Assembly (NCBI GenBank): GCA_951406725.2
Contig: OX597834.1
Location: 35,154,001 to 35,218,000, forward strand
Length of the DNA stretch: 64,000 bases
Direction: 5' to 3'
DNA from: Octopus vulgaris
Lineage: Eukaryota
A program made the position numbers and the translations under genes. Positions within the stretch are counted from its first letter, which is position 1. The number at the start of each line of letters is the position of its first letter. Below are positions 1 to 9,984 of the stretch, in pieces. Under the pieces are notes generated by a model. It saw only the letters and a list, made by a program, of their open reading frames with translations, did no database searches and was not told the origin of the DNA.

Positions 1-182
1 TGCATATATACACATTATTTTATTTAGTCGAATATTAGTTTAATTCACTATTAAGTAATAATTAATCTTATCTAAAATATAAAGATTAATTAGTAAATTT
101 AAAGGCGACTTTCATTTCACTGTCGCTTGATAACCAATTCATGGATTTCACTTTATTTAAAGCATCGTTTTCTTATGGTAAT

Positions 183-273
183 TAGGATTCTCTTTAGAAT
201 TTTAATTTCTTAGTGAATCGATCGGTAGGATTCTTTTTTAAAAGTTTAATTTCTTTATTAGTGAATCGATCGT
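183..273. repeat. Imperfect ~45-bp tandem duplication upstream of the snoRNA locus
   Basis: TAGGATTCT...TTTAATTTCT(TTAT)TAGTGAATCGATCG occurs twice (~183-224 and ~226-272). Confidence 0.7.
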
Positions 274-299
274 TGAAGAGTCGAGGCGCCCTGCGGGAA

Positions 300-380
300 A
301 TTGGCGGCAACCATGACCACGTGGTGTCGTCTATTGCATGTCTCCAGAAAACTACTACACGTGGCGGCTTTCTCATTTAG
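300..380 (+). promoter_or_regulatory. Candidate promoter/TSS of the snoRNA host transcript
   Basis: CpG-containing patch with two canonical E-boxes CACGTG (318-323, 358-363), followed by a pyrimidine tract CTTTCTC (368-374) resembling a 5'TOP/TCT start, just upstream of the first snoRNA. Confidence 0.45.
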
Positions 381-387
381 TATTACT

Positions 388-524
388 GCAGCTTTTCTAT
401 GATGACAACGATGACGAGTCTGAGGGCAATTTGCTGTCTTCGTGGTACAGTTTTTGTACTTTTGAAGTGCAGTTAACTTGCCATATCTGCTGCTTCTAGA
501 GGCATTTGTCTGAGAAATAGCTGC
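388..524 (+). ncRNA. SNORD15: Box C/D snoRNA, U15 (SNORD15) homologue
   Basis: Box C ATGATGA 399-405; GATGACGAGT followed by D' CTGA; AGAGGCATTTGT followed by box D CTGA 510-513; terminal stem GCAGC-TTTTCT/AGAAAT-AGCTGC. Both guides are antisense to 28S CAAAUGCCUCGUCAUC and match the U15 guides as recalled. Confidence 0.92.
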
Positions 525-711
525 TTTCAATACTTCATTCATACTATGCCCCGAGTAGTTTTTCTAACCTCTGTGGAACTTGATCTATATTTTACGTCAC
601 GAATTGGCAGGTTTTTCGAGAAACAGGCCGCACTAAAAGAAAATCGGGGTAATTTTTAGTTAGGTATGCAATTAAGGAGTCATGCGAGCTCCATATAATA
701 TATACTAATGG

Positions 712-823
712 TAATTTTTCGCTAGGCGTCCTTATTGTCTTAAGGGTCGTGGTGAGAAATAGTAATTTTTCGTTAGGGATTCCATTTAAAGTCCCGCAGG
801 TTCCCTCGTAACTGGTTTACAGT
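712..823 (+). ncRNA. Candidate box H/ACA RNA
   Basis: Hairpin (TTTTTCGCTA/TGGTGAGAAA, TCCTTA/TAAGGG), ANANNA hinge ATAGTA (759-764), second hairpin (GTTAGGGA/TCCCTCGTAAC), then ACA plus 3 nt at ~819. It sits in a plausible intron (649-848). Short for the class, and no target identified. Confidence 0.4.
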
Positions 824-981
824 AAATCGTTCTGCATTTTCTCTTTAGTTGGGGTTGGCAGGAATGTATCTGGTGTTCAGCTAGCAGTAATTTATAGTTT
901 TGATAATTATTAGTTTAAGACAAAATGCCTATTAGAAGTTATTTGTGTGGTTGAATTTTAATAGGGTCTGCGAAGGTGCTG

Positions 982-1054
982 TTTGCCCTGATGAATTCTT
1001 GGACTAGAGTCTCTGAAAAATTTTAATTTGAAGACAAACTGTCCACTGAGCAAA
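982..1054 (+). ncRNA. SNORD52: Box C/D snoRNA, U52/snR78 homologue
   Basis: Box C (C)TGATGA 988-994; guide GGACTAGAGTCT plus D' CTGA 1013-1016, antisense to 28S GACUCUAGUC (fifth nucleotide pairs with the U equivalent to yeast Um2421); C' TTGAAGA; box D CTGA 1046-1049; stem TTTGC/GCAAA. Confidence 0.88.
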
Positions 1055-1678
1055 TAATACCTTTCGTTATCTGTCGATCATGCCATATTTGTTCACATAG
1101 TGTATAAATTAGTGGTAGGCTTCGTGAGTCATACCGTAATTCGGTCTGTAATCGCAGCTTAGATTTTTTTTCGGCCAGTTTAATTTATAAGTTAGTCATT
1201 TTGATCGATTATCACGGGTTTTTTTCTATACGACCATTATTTTTTAACAGTAGGTTGTGATTTTTAGCAGAAGTGGGTTTCCGTTTTTTTTTTTTTTTTC
1301 CTCTGAAAATTTCCATGGACTGGGTTTTGGTTTCAACGGATTCACTTTTATTATAGTGTAGGATCGTTTTATTATGGCGCTGATTTTTTTTTTTTTTTTG
1401 TATTTGGTTATATGCAGAAATAGTTTACGACGAATACCTTTTCGTTCATGACTAGGGTCAGGTACTTCGTCTTTATGCCGGCATTTAGTTTTGTAGAAAT
1501 AGCAGCCAGCTCCTTAGGGGTAAGGAACTCTTAATGCAGTTTTATGATAGTAAGATAGCCGTATTGCTTCGTATTTAAGATTATTTAGATAAGACTTTGA
1601 CTTGGTATAGATTTCGTTTTAGTCATTTTTTTTGTATTTAACTATGGTGATACGTTATCTAGTCACAGTGTTTGAGAT

Positions 1679-1752
1679 GTCCCAAAAGTGATGATTTCGT
1701 GGATCGACTGATTTCTGACGATTAATCCTTTTGCCCCTATCTGATTTGGGAC
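1679..1752 (+). ncRNA. SNORD80: Box C/D snoRNA, U80/snR60-like (D guide)
   Basis: Perfect 8-bp stem GTCCCAAA/TTTGGGAC; box C GTGATGA 1688-1694; D' CTGA 1708-1711; C' CTGACGA; guide CTTTTGCCCCTAT plus box D CTGA 1741-1744, antisense to 28S AUAGGGGCGAAAG with one G-U pair (site equivalent to yeast Gm908). Confidence 0.88.
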
Positions 1753-1995
1753 ATTTCATTAGCCGCTATTTAACATCCGTTTTTCGTCCTAGCATGGGTT
1801 GGGTAGTTTGACCAGACCTAGTAGGGGACTGGTCGCATCAGGCTCCAACGTGGTGGCCGCAGCAGTATATGTGCACATGCCAGGGTGAATCGAGGAGGCG
1901 CATTTTTCAATGAAATTCGGACTTTGGTACAGATGTAAGTAAAATGTATTAATTCTCGTATTAATAAATTGTATCATTGGATTGATACCTCAAAA

Positions 1996-2062
1996 AGTAG
2001 GGTGATGAATGGCGTGTGAGCATTTGTGCTTGCAATAGTTTTGGTTCCTCTCTCTGAAGTGT
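1996..2062 (+). ncRNA. Weak candidate box C/D snoRNA
   Basis: GTGATGA 2002-2008 and CTGA 2054-2057, with an internal hairpin and a 10-nt antisense element GGTTCCTCTC. No good terminal stem and no clear C'/D' boxes. Confidence 0.3.
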
Positions 2063-2118
2063 TTTACCATGCTAGATGGTGATTTTTTTTTTTTTTTTTT
2101 TTTTACAATAAGCAAAAT

Positions 2119-2211
2119 TTCTGATATAATGATGAACACTAGGTCGGAGTACTGTGCTATTTCTAGCAGTGATGACTCTTCCACTCGTTCACTTTTTTCT
2201 GAATATCAGAA
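2119..2211 (+). ncRNA. Box C/D snoRNA, target unassigned
   Basis: Perfect 9-bp stem TTCTGATAT/ATATCAGAA; box C ATGATGA 2129-2135; canonical C' GTGATGA 2169-2175; box D CTGA 2199-2202; internal stem TGCTA/TAGCA. Confidence 0.8.
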
Positions 2212-2319
2212 GCTTATTCAGTACAGCACAAAGAATTGGTGTGGATGCTTGTGAAATAGAGCTTTTTGAGTTCCGGAAAATGTCCATTCTGTGAGATTGC
2301 CAGTGTGTAATAAATTTTG

Positions 2320-2840
2320 TGGGGGGTGGTGGTCTGAAAGGTTCATAGGCTAATAATGTGAGATCTATGTATCAATTTCCACCTTTCTTATTAATAACTG
2401 CATTCTCTCTTTCCAGGTGAACTTGACATTTGGCTGTTCAAAGAAGACTTAAAGTAACTGGTGTTGGCTTTTGAGATAGGACGAAATTTGTTATCAAGTA
2501 CCTGATATTGGTGTGGTTGCTATATCAGGGGCTGGCACTCCAGCTTTGCTAACAGTGCAAGAGTGGGGCAACTTAATTTCAGAGGGGTGGTAAGAGTCTC
2601 AAAGATTACCCAAGGTCCAGATGTCCTACAACTGCTCCCTTTGAGGAAAATGTTGGTCATGTTCACTGCATGCTGATGGACAGCAGGTGATTGACTGTAG
2701 ATCAGATGGCCTATGCTATTAGCATAGGACAGGAATATTCTCTGCACAATGAATCTGGCGATAGTTTCTGCTTGGTGGATGCCACGTTTTCTAACGCCCA
2801 ATGAAAAGTGCACAACACTGATCACATCATGGGAAAATCT
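2320..2840 (+). mobile_element. Degenerate mariner transposon 5' fragment
   Basis: TIR-like GGTGGTCTGAAAGGTTCATAGGCT. Broken transposase frame reads ...VSAWWMPRFLTPNEK, a WVPREL-type motif. Similar to 52450-52895. Confidence 0.7.
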
Positions 2841-5085
2841 GCAGTAATTGCCTTGGTTTTAAGCTATAGATTTCTAAAAAAATAGTGGAAGAGCAATGTT
2901 CTGTAAACAAAATGGAAATAGATCTATGTTAGCAATCTTTCCAACTTCGTACATATATTTTTATAAACACCTGCAAGAGAAAGTTACCAGTGGGAGGTCA
3001 ATGTAGAAATTTATAGTAAAAGTGGGAATGGTGTTCTAAAACATGGCCCAGATAAGTGAGGGGTCCACAATGGTATAGAACCAACAGGGAGACTGCAGTT
3101 GCTTGACCTGCTAAAAGTAGTAGCTGCATCAACCCCTTTCAGAATAGATATATTTGAGTTTTTTAGTGCATAGGAAAAGTTCCTAAATTTTTTCAAGCTG
3201 CTATCCCTTTGACACCCAGGCCACATTCCTAGGGCCCCTAGCCATCACAAACGCAGACCTCTTTCCGAAGCAAATTCAAAGCAACTGTATTTCACAAATA
3301 AAACTTGACCTAATAAACCCATTATTTTGTTGTCTTTACATGAATCACTACCCCTATTATCACCCCACTTTTCTTCAATGTCTCCAGGGGGTGCAAAGCC
3401 ACCCACTTTGGGAAGCACCGATGTAGTGTAATGGAGCCCAAGATGTACTATGACTGAAAGCATGGGATGTTTGTGGCTAAGAAGTCATCAGGCTGTTCAG
3501 TCAAAAGTGACTGTTTAACTCTTTACTCTGATCTCAGCATTGGAGATATATTTTAAATACTGGACAGGAGCACGTTCACATGTTTGTAAGGGTGAAATGG
3601 ATTTTGCTGAGGCAGATTTTCTATGAACTGATGCCCTTCTTGTCAGCAACCTTCACCTGTTTCCATTTAAGGTGATATTTCTTCAAAGCCAGACATGGTT
3701 TTTGAGAATATTAGAAATGAATGACATTTATTTACAGCAATCATGTGATGTCATAACAAGGAGACATGTAAACAGGCTTTATTCAGTCTCCAGGTTTAGG
3801 TCAGCCCAGAGATACAGTAGAAGACACTTGGTCATAATGTAGTAGCACTGAGCCTGAAACAATGTGGTTAGGAAGGAAACTAGCCACACTTGCTTAGTGT
3901 GGTATTTTGACCATATACCTGACTAACAGATGCACTCCACCAGTAGCATGCTGCAATGGTATACAGAAAAATAAAGCTCCACTGGTGTTAACGAGCTCAA
4001 AGGGTTAATTTGAATTACATCATAGCTAATCCAGATGATTAGAATCAGTGATTTATAAAGGTAGGAAATGAATCACTAATGCATTCTTTGTACAGAACCA
4101 TGTAGTAGCAATGAATCCAAGACATCAAGGTTGAGAAGTAATCTCAATCTTGCATCCCCACCCCACACACAAAAACTAATTGCAAGAAAGTTGTTTGCAA
4201 TGCAAACACCACCTTAGAAGTCAGTCTCCTGCCTTTAGAATTGTAAGAACCCAAAATGCTTCAGTATTCCAGTCATGACTCACCCAGTTTTCTTATTCCA
4301 TTTCTTACATGCACCAAAGCTGGTTGTGTTACTCCACTTGTTACAGAATAACAGCTAATGATAAAGTCCTAGATAGACTAACAAAAGCACGAGATGGTCA
4401 TGGCTAGAAGGTCATCAATTTAGTATAATATTGGCACAAGGTTAGCAATACTTGGGAAGGGGTAAGTTGATAATATTGGCCCCAGTACACAACTGGCATT
4501 TTATCAACCCCAAGAAAGATGAAAGGTAAAGTTGACCTTGGCTGAATGTAGAGACGAATGAAATACTAAGCATACTAGAAGTTATTTGTCCGCCCTTATC
4601 CACCAAATATGGAGGGCCTTATAGAAAGGCCTGCCCTTTCATGAGCATTCCTACCAACTAAACATAAGATTGGAAGTTAAACCACCTCCCTGATATGTAG
4701 ACTGTATTTGCTAATACAAGGGTCAGGTTTAGACAGAGTTATTGAACTTTGTAGTGTGGTCAACAAATGTTTTTACCTTGCCCCTAAACAGAAGCCTAAG
4801 CCCTATCTACTGATAGGGCTTCCCTAAACTTATATCCACAGGTTTCAGATTCAGTCCAACTACGGGGGAAGTGTCTTCTATAGCCCTGGGCCAACCAAAA
4901 CCTTTGGTAGACAAACTGAATGAAACACCATGTGTTTCCTTTTCTTAATTTTGCATCATTTGTTTTCAATCTTCTGTGGAAATTTATTTCCTTGAAAGGG
5001 AGGACATCCAGCCAGTGAAAGCCTACCTCCATTGAAGCTCGGAAAAGTGGATGTTAAAATGATGATTCTGAAAAAGGAAACTGCT

Positions 5086-5305
5086 ATACAAGGGGGTGCT
5101 GAAAAGTTCCTGATGTTAAGGATGTCACGAAAGGCCTGGTTGGAGACCCAACCTAAATTCTCTTACAGGGCTTAAAAACGCTGATGGACTGCTGCAATAA
5201 GTGTGTGAATCTGAGAGGGGAATATGTTGAATAAAATTGTAATCAACTGATTCTCCTGTATTTTCTTTTACCCAAGGCCAGGAACATTTCAGCACCCACT
5301 TATAC
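5086..5305. mobile_element. Mariner-derived MITE
   Basis: Terminal inverted repeats GGGTGCTGAAAAGTTCCTG / CAGGAACATTTCAGCACCC with TA flanks. Confidence 0.75.
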
Positions 5306-5788
5306 ATGAAATGAAAGAATTAGCCAATTCCTTAGCACATGCAAAAATTATAGATCAAAAAGTCGAGGAAACAAAGTCCCAGATCGATGGGGAACATTAA
5401 ACGGTTATGAAAAGATACTTTACTAAAATTCACAAAAAAAAAAAAAAAAAAAAAAAAAAATTAACTCCTGATTCAAATGTTATGATAATAGCAGTTAATA
5501 TAAAAATTTTGGGGTTTGACAAATTAATTTCATTGTCAATTGTAACCCTGAAACCATTTCCTCAAAGAAACAGACTTTAATAATGCATATTTTGGCATCA
5601 ACCACCTGATTTTTTTAAAACTCAGAAATTGAAATGAATCAAATCCTTGCCCTAGAGGCTTGAGAAAAGGAGCTGCATGAAACATGGCTCATCACCTGGT
5701 GGGTCACTATTAAAAATGTAGAAGTCCCACATGCCACAGTTTGTCCACAACTGTTTTGTATCATCAGAAACACAATCCTTCCTGTATA

Positions 5789-5980
5789 TATGAGGGGTGG
5801 GGGTGCTGAAAAATTCCTGGATTTAGATAAAAGGAAATACAGGAGGATCAGTTAATGAGTTTATTTAACATCTTCCCTTCTAAGATTCATACTTATTGCA
5901 GCAGCCCTTCAGTTTTCCTAAGCCCTGTAAAAGAAATTTGAAGGTTGGACCTCCTACCAGGAACTTTGCAGCACCTTATA
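5789..5980. mobile_element. Mariner-derived MITE, same family as 5086-5305 in opposite orientation
   Basis: TIRs GGTGCTGAAAAATTCCTGG / CCAGGAACTTTGCAGCACC; interior is the reverse complement of the 5086-5305 copy. Confidence 0.75.
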
Positions 5981-7934
5981 GTTTTTTGTTTTTTTTTTCT
6001 TTTGTGCCACTTTAGCATGTGGTCTAGCTGGGCATTTAAAATTTAGCATGCACTAATTGACCTAACCCAGACCAGATCTATTTCACAGCATAAACTCGCA
6101 TACTGCCTGCTACTGTATCTGTAAAGGATTGAGTTGGGTTTTTTTCAAGTATTCAATAAAAACAATAAATTGGGTTTAAAAAGTGTTTAATATAAAATGA
6201 ATACAAAACACTGATTTTTAAAAACTGACAAAGTAAAAGGGAACAAATGAGCAAAAATACAGAAATGTCCAACTAGGTTTTCTTATTTCAAATGGCATAA
6301 AAATCTAAAACATTCAAAGAAATTCAAATCTTATATTGGTAAATTGAATACAGAAAAATGCATGTGTATATGTATTTGGTTACATATAACCTTTACAAGA
6401 TGGGAGGAAACAAATTCATTAAAAAATGGGATTCCATCTTTTAAAGTAAAGAGAATTTTGTGTTAGTATATAATAAAAAAATTGGGTATTAACATTGAAT
6501 AGAAGACTTTTCAAATCAGCAATAATATGGAGCAAGTCCTACACAAAAAGTCTTTGTATTAAATATATTGAAATGACCAAAAATTTCATTAAAAAGTTGG
6601 GGTTGTTTTCCTAAACTGAACAATAGTTAAAACTATTTAAAGAACTTTGGGAAAATATATTAAGAACTGATGTTAATTTTTCAGTTGGAGGTATAGGTAA
6701 CAAGAACCCAATTTATAGAACAAAAGCAAAATATAATCAGCATTAATAGCCAGGGAGGTGGTATGGTTCTGTTGACTGCATCTTGAAGAACGTCAAAATT
6801 GAAGTTTCAATTGTTCACTTGTTCCAAATATGAAATCCAGAACATCTATCAGAGGTTGTTAGAAAAATCAAAGAACAAGCAGGAAAAAAATTGGGTTATG
6901 AACAACCCCTGGAGTTTAACATTTTGACCAAGCACAAGAGAGAAACTATAAACAATTGTATTTTATATTTAAGAATTCTACTGGTACTTAGTTTGGCTTC
7001 AGTAGGAATAAATAGCAAAGTCACCATCCACTTCTCAGAATTGAACTTGTGGCTCTATCATTCTTCATGACAATGAAAAATGTTCCAATTATAATTCACA
7101 CTCAATGAAACAAACATTAAAAATATTTTAACTCTTAGAGTAAAAAATACCTTTACAAGAAGTTGGGGGTGGGGATATCAATAAGATAATGTAAAAATTT
7201 TACAAAAACATCAGGTTAGTCTAATAAACAGCAACAGCAACTTAGTTTTTTTTTGTATTTTTTCTTTAAAGTGTTTGGTTTGAGAAATGCAATAAATATT
7301 TCTGGGAGCACTGAAGTAACTCAGAATATAACAAAAGGCACAACAAATGAAATATAGTTGTACTCAGGAGTTTAGAGGCGACCTGCCTTGTCTAAATATA
7401 ATGTCAGGAGTAATAAATATATTTAATACATTAAAATCAAAATCTCAAAGAAATTTATATATATCTCTATATATATATAGTAAGAAAAAATTTCATTAAA
7501 AAGTTAAAAGGTACTTTCATATTAAGACAGTCAATTTGTTTTTTTTATTTACTAAAGGATTAGTAAATATACTATTCCACTTCTAGAGTTAGTTGGCAGA
7601 CTTTTGGAATGAACTACCATTACCAGTAGAAATTTAGTGGAAAAGGACACAGAATTGGAGAGTGAAAATGTTAAAATTGTTTAGGCCAAAAAATTCTTTC
7701 ACAGAAAGAATCACCCAATTCCTTACCATTTTCCTTCTGCATAAAGTTGTGATAGCCAATTCCGAAAGTCTGCCAACTAGCATCTCGCGAGTGTAATAGT
7801 TTATCTACTAATCCTTTAATAAATAAATTAGCCATCGATAATAGAAAAAGTACCGATAAAAATGTTCTAGTCCCTCTCCTCACGAAAATATTTTGAGCCT
7901 ACCACTTTAAATGGTATGCAACAGACCGAGTCTG

Positions 7935-9833
7935 CTATTGAGATGGCAGCGTGTTGCCTGAATATTGAACATTTTGCATATAAGCAATACATGGAATAAA
8001 TGGAGTTTGAGAAGATTGACCAGTGGAGAGAGCAGTAGCTGTGGCGAAGTTCTGTGGATACATAGCATATAGCTGGTGGGTGTAGGTGTGTTGTGCCGGA
8101 TAATATACAGGTGTACTGTGGACGGGAGCGGTCATAGACGAATTATAGCGAAAAGAGGATACTGACTGGGGCGTAGAAGTAGAGGTTACGTTCGTGTTTT
8201 GTAACATGCTGACAGCTTTGTGGTACTCAAAACCAAGGTTGTAGAAGTATCTTAAAGTAGCCAAATCCGAGAAAGGTAAGTCTCTTCCGCACGGGTCTTG
8301 AGAAACTCCAACATTGAAATTTATCAAACTGTTCGCTCGCTCCAAGTAAGGAATCCAAATGTGAGGATTTATAGAAATTCGTGAAGTCATACTTACAGGT
8401 GCTGATAGAGAAGTCGGGTTATTGTTTACATTAGTAAGAGGTGGTTGATCACCAGTTACAAACATACTACTGCTCGAAGAGTCGTCAGCGCTTACCAATG
8501 TCGGCGGTAGAGACGAAGTCACCAACATTTCAGTATTTGATTGGTCGTATTCTAGCTGCTTACAGTAATGGCATTCACAAATAGCATTTTCATTGAATTT
8601 ATTTAAAGATTTATCGCTGTTTACTTTCTCTGCAACATAGTCGTCGTTTTCTGGGTTTGAACTATTAGGATATTTATGAAGACTGCGTGAAAATTTAGTT
8701 CTATTAGCTGTATTCAATTTCTTTTGGGTGTAGATTTTAGCATGGCGACTTCCGACAGATTTTTTGACTTTAGTGGAAGTAGTCAAATTACTAGAGACTA
8801 ATTGACTCGTACCATTCATATGTACAACCATTGTTACTGCTTTTCGGCACTTTCTACCGGTTTTCAATAGGTATCGTTCATTTGAAGGTACGTGTCTTAA
8901 ACAGTCGTAAGCAACTTGGCATTTCTTACCAAGTTCTTCCACATATACTTCAACATGTCCCTCCCCATCAGTTATTTCTTGAACATGAGCATTATATGTT
9001 CGGTCAGTTCCGTCTATTAAAACTTGGCATTTATCTCCCGGCTGAAATTCGGAAAGCCTTTTCGCCAATAACTCAGCTCTTTTAGCTTCTTGCCAGTTAT
9101 CGAATTCAACATTCCGAAAAATATCTGGATCCAGTGCTTTGGCAACTCTGTAAGGTAATGGAGGACTAGGTTTTTTATTCTCACATTCTTTTCTTGAACC
9201 AACACAGTCGAATTCCACATCGTTTTTCTTGTCACAAGCCAAATTTTTGTTGCTTCTAACACGCTTGCATTTATTTTGTTTCCGTAGCATATTCACAGCC
9301 TCTTCAATTTCGGTGGGCATTTCAAATACGTTGCGGTACAAAATATCATAAATCACAGACTGACAGAGAGCTGCTTCAGGTGGGAATGACTTTGAGTAGA
9401 CACTATCATAGTGAACACCATCAAAAAATAATAAAATTTGCTTGGTATAATCAGTTTTAGAGATGGAATATATACTATCCATACCAGTATAGATGAAAAA
9501 GTTTAGTTTGTATACGTCGGACAACAGTTTAATTTCTGTATAACTTCCACAAACTTCGCTCTCTTCGAAGCTAAAACTTAAATCAACGCAGGTATCTTTG
9601 TTGCAGCCACTTGAAAACGAACTACTCGAAGCCAATTTTTCTTCGACAGCTTTCTGTAGGTGGTCATGGAATGCCTGCGTATTGAACAACTGCTCTGAGA
9701 CAGCTCTGTAGAAACAGGAACCATCTTTGGGGATAGGTTTACGCCATAATCCTAAGCTATCCAAATATAAATCCACTTCGGTTCTCGGCTTGTTATTAAT
9801 ACTTATAACATTAGACAAGTTGTTGTCCCCCAT
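7935..9833 (-). CDS. Intronless OTU-domain deubiquitinase with Tudor domain (OTUD4/ALG13/ovarian tumor family), 632 aa
   Basis: Uninterrupted 1.9-kb ORF. OTU Cys box IPKDGSCFYRAVSEQL and His box GVHYDSVY; family motif PLPYRVAKALDPDIFRNVEFDNW; Tudor-like FQPGDKCQV...YNAHVQEI...VEVYVEELG; C-terminal GRDLP...LRYFYNLG motif. Confidence 0.93.
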   Translation of the reverse strand: MGDNNLSNVISINNKPRTEVDLYLDSLGLWRKPIPKDGSCFYRAVSEQLFNTQAFHDHLQKAVEEKLASSSSFSSGCNKDTCVDLSFSFEESEVCGSYTEIKLLSDVYKLNFFIYTGMDSIYSISKTDYTKQILLFFDGVHYDSVYSKSFPPEAALCQSVIYDILYRNVFEMPTEIEEAVNMLRKQNKCKRVRSNKNLACDKKNDVEFDCVGSRKECENKKPSPPLPYRVAKALDPDIFRNVEFDNWQEAKRAELLAKRLSEFQPGDKCQVLIDGTDRTYNAHVQEITDGEGHVEVYVEELGKKCQVAYDCLRHVPSNERYLLKTGRKCRKAVTMVVHMNGTSQLVSSNLTTSTKVKKSVGSRHAKIYTQKKLNTANRTKFSRSLHKYPNSSNPENDDYVAEKVNSDKSLNKFNENAICECHYCKQLEYDQSNTEMLVTSSLPPTLVSADDSSSSSMFVTGDQPPLTNVNNNPTSLSAPVSMTSRISINPHIWIPYLERANSLINFNVGVSQDPCGRDLPFSDLATLRYFYNLGFEYHKAVSMLQNTNVTSTSTPQSVSSFRYNSSMTAPVHSTPVYYPAQHTYTHQLYAMYPQNFATATALSTGQSSQTPFIPCIAYMQNVQYSGNTLPSQ

Positions 9834-9984
9834 AATTTTTTCCTTTTTTTAAATAATAATAATTATCATAAAATAAATTCAAATTCTTACTGACGGCAGT
9901 TATTTGTGAAGAAACGTTTCGTTTGCCTTTTAGTTCACAGCAGTTCCACGAAGTTACCCAACATTCCAATTCCAGCTCAAGTGA

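Follow-up and report, generated by a model that had tools for sequence, protein, structure and literature searches.

Drosophila Uhg1-8 and the vertebrate genes GAS5 and SNHG1/UHG are spliced genes that carry several small nucleolar RNAs (snoRNAs) of the box C/D class and no open reading frame (ORF). Vertebrate hosts of this kind typically have a terminal oligopyrimidine (TOP) start, and their spliced RNA decays. Clusters of snoRNAs have been described in the fly (PMC13228274), where Uhg1, Uhg2, Uhg4 and Uhg5 have E-boxes near the 5' end and such boxes make the Uhg genes targets of Myc, the E-box of Uhg1 lying 14 bp before the start (PMC4430873). Across taxa, it is common for the set of snoRNAs and their order to change from host to host (PMC6984369). 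For cephalopods, no snoRNA host description appeared among the matches listed in the literature; in the passages concerned, the paper on the squid genome does no more than count snoRNA loci (PMC6962438) and an octopus long non-coding RNA paper removes Rfam-like transcripts (PMC9115989). Here we describe a locus of Octopus vulgaris (assembly GCA_951406725.2) at the beginning of a 64,000-nucleotide (nt) window (contig OX597834.1, 35,154,001 to 35,218,000, forward strand; negative positions lie before the window). It is a transcribed, spliced gene that lacks any long reading frame; its guides, predicted TATA start, retrocopies and upstream twin make it very probable that it acts solely to host box C/D snoRNAs. 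It is a host of the known Uhg/GAS5 kind, likened by layout and not by orthology to any named host. A preliminary description had placed such a dedicated non-coding host at 368-2300; its type agrees with the guides, the absence of an ORF, the splicing of the RNA, a first exon with TATA and initiator elements, and the retrocopies of mature snoRNAs, while its bounds have to be widened, since a start upstream of the window and an end around 3300 are likely. Compared with the Uhg and GAS5 hosts, the octopus locus has a different guide set, two tandem paralogous hosts with near-identical promoters, and a TATA/initiator rather than a clear TOP start. In human, the U15, U52 and U80 guides met here presumably sit in three hosts, RPS3, SNHG32 and GAS5; the mixed set is unsurprising, because host content commonly shifts across taxa.

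Our scan of 368-2300 looked for a box C, a box D and a terminal stem. Four such RNAs were detected on the plus strand, in agreement with the four well-formed same-strand RNAs in less than 2 kb described before, and none on the minus strand. Dinucleotide shuffles of the region gave a mean of 0.054 and never reached four (0/1000). The four RNAs are:

399-513, plus strand: B1, box C/D snoRNA of the U15/SNORD15 type (Rfam match below cut-off, pairing with the genome's own 28S)
988-1049, plus strand: B2, box C/D snoRNA of the U52/SNORD52 type (Rfam match below cut-off, own-28S pairing)
1688-1744, plus strand: B3, box C/D snoRNA of the snR60/U80 type (Rfam match below cut-off, own-28S pairing)
2129-2202, plus strand: B5, box C/D snoRNA with a variant D' box, CUGU, at 2152-2155 (18S pairing, two upstream paralogs)

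In all four, the C box sits close to the 5' end and the D box close to the 3' end, and a terminal stem is present; the C box of B2 has a C where a purine is expected. The expected Rfam families came up, each below its cut-off: SNORD15 (RF00067) at 394-518 (B1; E-value = 7e-10, 53.8 bits against a gathering score of 75), SNORD52 (RF00276) at 984-1052 (B2; E-value = 2.8e-6, 39.2 against 45 bits) and snR60/Z15/SNORD80 (RF00309) at 1679-1752 (B3; E-value = 0.11, 27.7 against 41 bits). B1-B3 are therefore named U15-, U52- and U80-type from their guides and targets, not as Rfam members. With all Rfam scores under the cut-off and no ORF, standard annotation misses the locus, as had been anticipated for ORF-based annotation.

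Targets were sought in the genome's own ribosomal DNA (rDNA; 18S and 28S), U2 and U6 by the D+5 rule, with ribosomal RNA (rRNA) positions counted from the start of the Rfam match. Both rRNAs are very long (18S match 2643 nt, 28S match 4890 nt), and each target site occurs in the two rDNA copies retrieved (2/2). The rDNA array is located on G000:C20 with a period of about 18.4 kb (L019, L020, L023, L024) and carries substitutions where the Rfam consensus is conserved. Guides of at least 9 nt, adjacent to D or D' and complementary to the own rRNA, occur in B1, B2, B3 and B5, and those of B1-B3 are identical to, or can be mapped onto, the Rfam consensus guides. Specifically, the D guide of B1 forms 10 Watson-Crick pairs pointing to 28S A3377 (human Am3785) and its D' guide 9 Watson-Crick pairs pointing to G3384 (human Gm3792); B1 is also the best SNORD15 match in the genome among the four matches listed. 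The D' guide of B2 forms 13 pairs, including 2 G-U, pointing to U3517 (human Um3925), which was equalled by 0/60 shuffled guides, and B2 is the sole intact match in the genome (G000) to a pattern of C box plus U52 guide. The D guide of B3 forms 13 pairs pointing to G1337 (human Gm1625; 1/60 shuffles as good), and its D' guide 9 pairs pointing to U1246, where the eukaryote consensus has an A (human Am1534). The human sites are those given for SNORD15 (Am3785/Gm3792), SNORD52 (Um3925), SNORD80 (Am1534/Gm1625) and SNORD28 (Cm1391) (PMC11550049). The U15, U52 and U80 assignments made earlier thus hold against the genome's own rRNA. Judged by these pairings, the four RNAs are predicted to guide 2'-O-methylation of rRNA, B1 at two adjacent 28S sites, B2 at one 28S site, B3 at two 28S sites and B5 at one 18S site, and the locus likely supplies guides for six conserved methylation sites.

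Concerning B5, a short hairpin and then a perfect C' box come after the variant D' box. The D' guide of B5 forms 11 pairs with the own 18S at 1895-1905, pointing to C1898, and positions 2184-2190 pair perfectly (7 bp) with the adjoining 18S 1888-1894. Shuffles gave an equally good guide in 69/1000 cases and an equally good guide plus adjacent 7-mer in 1/1000; the guide at 2129, once listed as an orphan, therefore most likely has an 18S target. The site comes after the conserved GAACGAGAC, and the target C lies 8 nt past the second A of GAACGAG. Human Am1383 (SNORD30) and Cm1391 (SNORD28) show the same spacing (PMC11550049). From this spacing and its context, the target is most likely the human 18S Cm1391 site. 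B5 had no SNORD28 (RF00085) match among Rfam rows at E-values up to 10, and a genome search with the SNORD28 model gave a single match, elsewhere (E-value = 0.45). Because of this lack of a model match, B5 is termed a functional equivalent of SNORD28, which it may be without being its homolog: the homologous C is the predicted target, but the B5 guide sits at a variant D' box and has extra pairing. Yeast snR75 likewise combines one guide with an extra-pairing element, which lies in the second guide region and not beside the D box, and divergent C'/D' motifs are active (PMC3116282). No D-type guide for the B5 18S site was found elsewhere in G000, where a tight B5 pattern picked up just three matches: B5, the B5 paralog A3 and one that looks unrelated. 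Read as a canonical D-box guide, B5 has no good target (15/60 shuffles as good). A minor alternative target is 18S 1579, with a pairing of 9 nt, 2 of them G-U.

The D' guide of B3 appears to have changed together with its target. The site reads UGAACUAug in the Rfam eukaryote consensus and CGAUCCACG in the own rRNA, while the guide reads CAUAGUUCA in the consensus and CGUGGAUCG in B3, with 4 of 9 positions differing. Each of the four letters changed in the guide forms a Watson-Crick pair with one of the four changed rRNA letters; for a predetermined site, we estimate the chance of four such matches at about 1/256. One of the four is at the methylated position, so the conserved Am would become Um, and B3 would methylate a U where the consensus has Am. 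The U80 D' guide has followed four rRNA substitutions, and the position would be methylated as U and not as A. The core of the changed guide also occurs in three upstream copies and one retrocopy. The U52 guide carries one change, which matches a U-to-C change at its 28S site. A comparable case is zebrafish SNORD34 at LSU-2824, where guide and rRNA changed together through three compensatory changes, the methylated base included, turning human Um into zebrafish Gm (PMC7668251). In B3 there are four changes instead of three, they fall on Rfam-conserved letters, and the methylation is a predicted one. The U80 site can thus serve as a clear and testable example of a guide and its rRNA changing in concert, in which it can be asked whether methylation outlasts a base change.

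The gene around these RNAs is proposed to comprise:

G000:C21:35153764-35153795 (236 nt before the window), plus strand: predicted exon 1, 32 nt (TATA, initiator, donor)
1-610, plus strand: remainder of the predicted intron 1 (from sequence)
302-363, plus strand: promoter-like block with TGGCGG and two CACGTG E-boxes (318, 358), kept in the paralog
611-648, plus strand: predicted short exon, with an alternative donor after 663 (AG/GT boundaries only)
849-886, plus strand: predicted short exon (acceptor with 14/17 pyrimidines, weak donor)
1101-1123, plus strand: predicted short exon (acceptor kept in the upstream paralog)
1793-1934, plus strand: penultimate exon segment (donor 1934/1935 used, acceptor 1792 predicted)
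2417-3330, plus strand: terminal exon (spliced contigs, AATAAA at 3297 and 3312, predicted 3' end)

Upstream of the window, TATATAAA is followed 31 nt on by an initiator-like TCATTT and then by a strong donor, AG/GTATGT. Transcription likely starts here, 236 nt before the window, with a predicted junction at the end of exon 1. RNA polymerase II would use this TATA/initiator, possibly boosted by the two Myc-type E-boxes; the snoRNAs would then be trimmed from introns and loaded with fibrillarin, the spliced exons being a by-product. The paralog repeats the layout of the promoter-like block (-13558/-13541/-13499). Next to the block comes, at 368, a pyrimidine tract that may be a second, TOP-like start, because an E-box precedes it as in fly Uhg1.

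Transcript evidence consists of contigs from four runs (X1, X5, X13, X19) of 24, mapped on -600..6900 of the window. Contigs cover this copy in 4/4 runs, spanning -234..667 in X19 and beginning at -188 in X1 and X5. A GT-AG junction joins 1934 to 2417 in X1, X5 and X13 (3/4 runs, three studies), and this spliced joint speaks for the contigs being RNA. The host gene is transcribed and spliced, and B5, together with a weak candidate at 2002-2057 (B4, see below), lies in a spliced-out intron. For B1, B2 and B3 an intronic release is predicted, with candidate acceptors 97, 51 and 48 nt past box D. The acceptor at 1100/1101 is conserved, as 1072-1113 aligns with the paralog at -13116..-13079 (34/42 nt, 81%, E-value = 4e-4). 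This is the part of the previously proposed AG/GT micro-exons that found backing; the only junction seen, 1934/2417, lies past the end assigned to the locus then. The junctions 648/849, 886/1101 and 1123/downstream, also proposed then, were absent among 15 of the 20 joints and an X1 contig runs unbroken across them, although contigs drop rare forms and unseen micro-exon junctions are no proof of absence. Two 22-nt joints, 1341/1997 and 2018/3177 (places in L021), were rejected as splicing, since the upstream U15 has the identical 22 nt; they likely stem from a contig of the paralog.

At the 3' end, the spliced contigs of X5 span 2417-3296 and a contig of X1 also stops at 3296, where a repeat starts, so the end given for the terminal exon is a predicted one. 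A degenerate dispersed repeat at 2356-2850, which we assume to be mariner-like, provides the acceptor and the start of this exon, and 1769-1815 also matches a repeat. As stated in the preliminary description, there is no ORF to speak of: no ATG-initiated ORF on the plus strand exceeds 61 amino acids (aa) in -300..3400, none of 100 aa occurs on that strand in 1-7900, and the longest frame in 24 spliced models is 39 aa. These data bear on the possibility that the introns with the snoRNAs form part of a long 5' leader, in a protein-coding gene whose coding exons would be located further downstream. Many snoRNA hosts are protein-coding (PMC13228274), and the contig mapping reached only from -600 to 6900. 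We nevertheless consider such a gene very improbable, as the spliced contigs stop at 3296 with two AATAAA alongside, no ORF in the terminal exon exceeds 39 aa, and the next gene that can be clearly made out is encoded on the opposite strand.

A polycistronic precursor that stays largely unspliced and is cut by endonuclease, as in yeast snR72-78 and in plants, would begin either near 368 or at the TATA box. It could account for contigs that are unspliced over B1-B3 in X1 and X5 and over B3 in X13, for an E-box placed just before the pyrimidine tract as in fly Uhg1 (PMC4430873), and for B4 and B5, which would otherwise share one intron. However, the strong first donor, the paralog-conserved acceptor, the typical spacing between box D and acceptor and the used junction all favor splicing, and contigs lose rare, short spliced forms; we regard this precursor as unlikely.

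Several points weigh against a spliced host gene with working guides. The RNA nature of the runs is a guess, as the 24 listed runs come without an RNA record. The listed contigs are unspliced across the B1-B3 introns, one from X1 being unbroken over -188..1299. The D' box of B5 is non-canonical and its nearest used acceptor is 214 nt away. At the gathering score, Rfam gave no match across the whole 64-kb window. Taken alone, some pairings are readily matched by shuffles (B1 D 8/60, B1 D' 5/60, B3 D' 23/60), and these three assignments are made because of family identity and site homology, not pairing significance. Stable small RNAs and methylation are predicted, and support for the products comes indirectly, from the retrocopies.

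Four dispersed retrocopies end 0-4 nt past box D and continue into an A-run, and three of the four start at or just before box C. The copy on C12 derives from B1 (5'-truncated), those on C19 and C1 from the upstream U15, and that on C11 from an upstream-type U80; none of B2 or B5 was found in the search for retrocopies. They look like reverse-transcribed mature snoRNAs, and their ends at box D and the A-run lend support to mature RNAs. After the short A-run, all four (L005:1501-1620, L039:1500-1640, L040:1500-1630, L092:1501-1580) continue into the start of one repeat resembling a short interspersed nuclear element (SINE), and they may be snoRNA-SINE chimeras formed by template switching. Additionally, copies on C14 and C29 contain intron and exon pieces in unspliced form. 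These dispersed host fragments are located at L002:1501-1779 and in L003; the copy on C14 begins with the predicted donor 886/887 and contains a dead U52.

A paralogous cluster lies 9-14 kb upstream, at -13452..-8888 (G000:C21:35140548-35145112). It has six snoRNAs, namely a single U15, three copies of U80 and two RNAs of the B5 type, besides a decayed U52-like remnant ahead of the conserved acceptor. Rfam over the 50 kb upstream gave 121 rows at E-values up to 5, nearly all microRNA look-alikes in simple repeats, and the only useful row was SNORD15 at L012:6543-6663. The snoRNAs of the two hosts are 72-88% alike, with boxes, guides and stems kept, and the introns are unalignable. Between B3 and the upstream U80 copies two A-U stem pairs have become G-C, with both sides changed. 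The upstream U15 keeps the D guide and has a different D' guide, which recurs in two retrocopies; this guide (L012:6549-6570) makes 10/11 pairs with 18S 87-97, a weak pairing with a mismatch at position 3, and yielded no clear target. The promoter and exon 1, by contrast with the snoRNAs, are duplicated with 97.7% identity over 1.26 kb (1229 matches, 29 mismatches). This 1.3-kb duplicate (G000:C21:35138853-35140163 and 35152607-35153868) is far younger than the snoRNA duplication. Diverged snoRNAs, unalignable introns and near-identical promoters together point to an old tandem duplication followed by a recent promoter conversion or re-duplication. A tandem duplication would thus have produced the second host, after which snoRNAs would have been gained and lost and the promoters made alike; the twin hosts present snoRNA gain and loss and promoter homogenisation in one locus.

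With two similar clusters, and with a repeat-derived terminal exon in the window copy, the latter might be a decaying duplicate and the upstream copy the working host. This we find hardly credible, since the window copy has the only intact U52-type guide found and a U15 with both conserved guides, while the upstream U15 D' guide is changed and the upstream U52 decayed; contigs also cover the window copy in every one of the four runs.

Two weaker candidates had been reported alongside the four RNAs, and they fared differently: one is a clear, if weak, box C/D candidate, and for the second, reported without coordinates, the only counterpart proposed here is an H/ACA-like hairpin.

2002-2057, plus strand: B4, weak candidate for a box C/D snoRNA (both boxes perfect, stem not stable)
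714-823, plus strand: weak H/ACA-like candidate (hairpin at 714-760, ATAGTA at 759, ACA at 819)

The fold of B4 has a z-score of 0.03, and perfect C-D pairs occur in the local background at 0.2 per kb. Through 11 pairs its D guide matches the sarcin-ricin loop sequence GAGAGGAACCG, and the nucleotide pointed to would be the own 28S A4469, the last A of the GAGA tetraloop; as 226/1000 shuffles equalled the pairing, the guide is not significant. No second copy of B4 (paralog or retrocopy) was found in the genome, and four other genome matches to its guide plus D box were dismissed, having no C box within 90 nt. In metagenomes, none of 42 B4 matches was snoRNA-like (they were coding-like or repeats, with stems of at most 5), and the U80-type pattern gave no match, in a collection that holds few animals and so makes a weak test. 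That B4 is a real snoRNA is possible, at about one in three. We think it rather unlikely that B4 is at once real, lineage-specific, a guide for methylation of the last GAGA A and a partner of B5 in one intron, possibly as one twin-snoRNA RNA. If this were true, B4 and the A-to-U switch of U80 would amount to rewired methylation in the core of a divergent ribosome. By the numbering we assume, the B4 target A falls between human Am4590 and Gm4618. The human list has no 2'-O-methyl site between these two (PMC11550049), and G4618 is placed on H95 (PMC12288042, PMC4855143). No report of GAGA-tetraloop methylation was found in the literature, where the supplements with full modification maps of other eukaryotes may hold one. 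Tetrahymena TtnuCD32 has a long pairing at the base of the sarcin-ricin stem with no methylation (PMC6315972), which calls for caution, although for B4 the pairing would involve the loop itself. An intron that holds two snoRNAs can give rise to a single RNA with both of them as caps, a sno-lncRNA (PMC4234469), and B4, if real, shares with B5 the one intron demonstrated here.

The hairpin of the second candidate folds at -18.4 kcal/mol (z-score of -2.4 within the intron), with a poor second hairpin, and 714-823 had no convincing target pocket and no Rfam match. With one good hairpin and the boxes present, yet no good pocket match, it falls short of a box H/ACA snoRNA.

Beyond the host gene, contigs cover -600..-355 in 3/4 runs, ending before the TATA box, and a strong minus-strand donor is located near -821 (G000:C21 ~35153180-35153650, window -821..-355), with a copy upstream. 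These may belong to a divergent transcript, possibly from a two-way promoter near -821..-355. Finally, the minus strand at 7935-9848 contains a single intronless frame of 637 aa, of use as a synteny marker, with a weak OTU-like protease match (PF02338, E-value = 5e-4, below cut-off).

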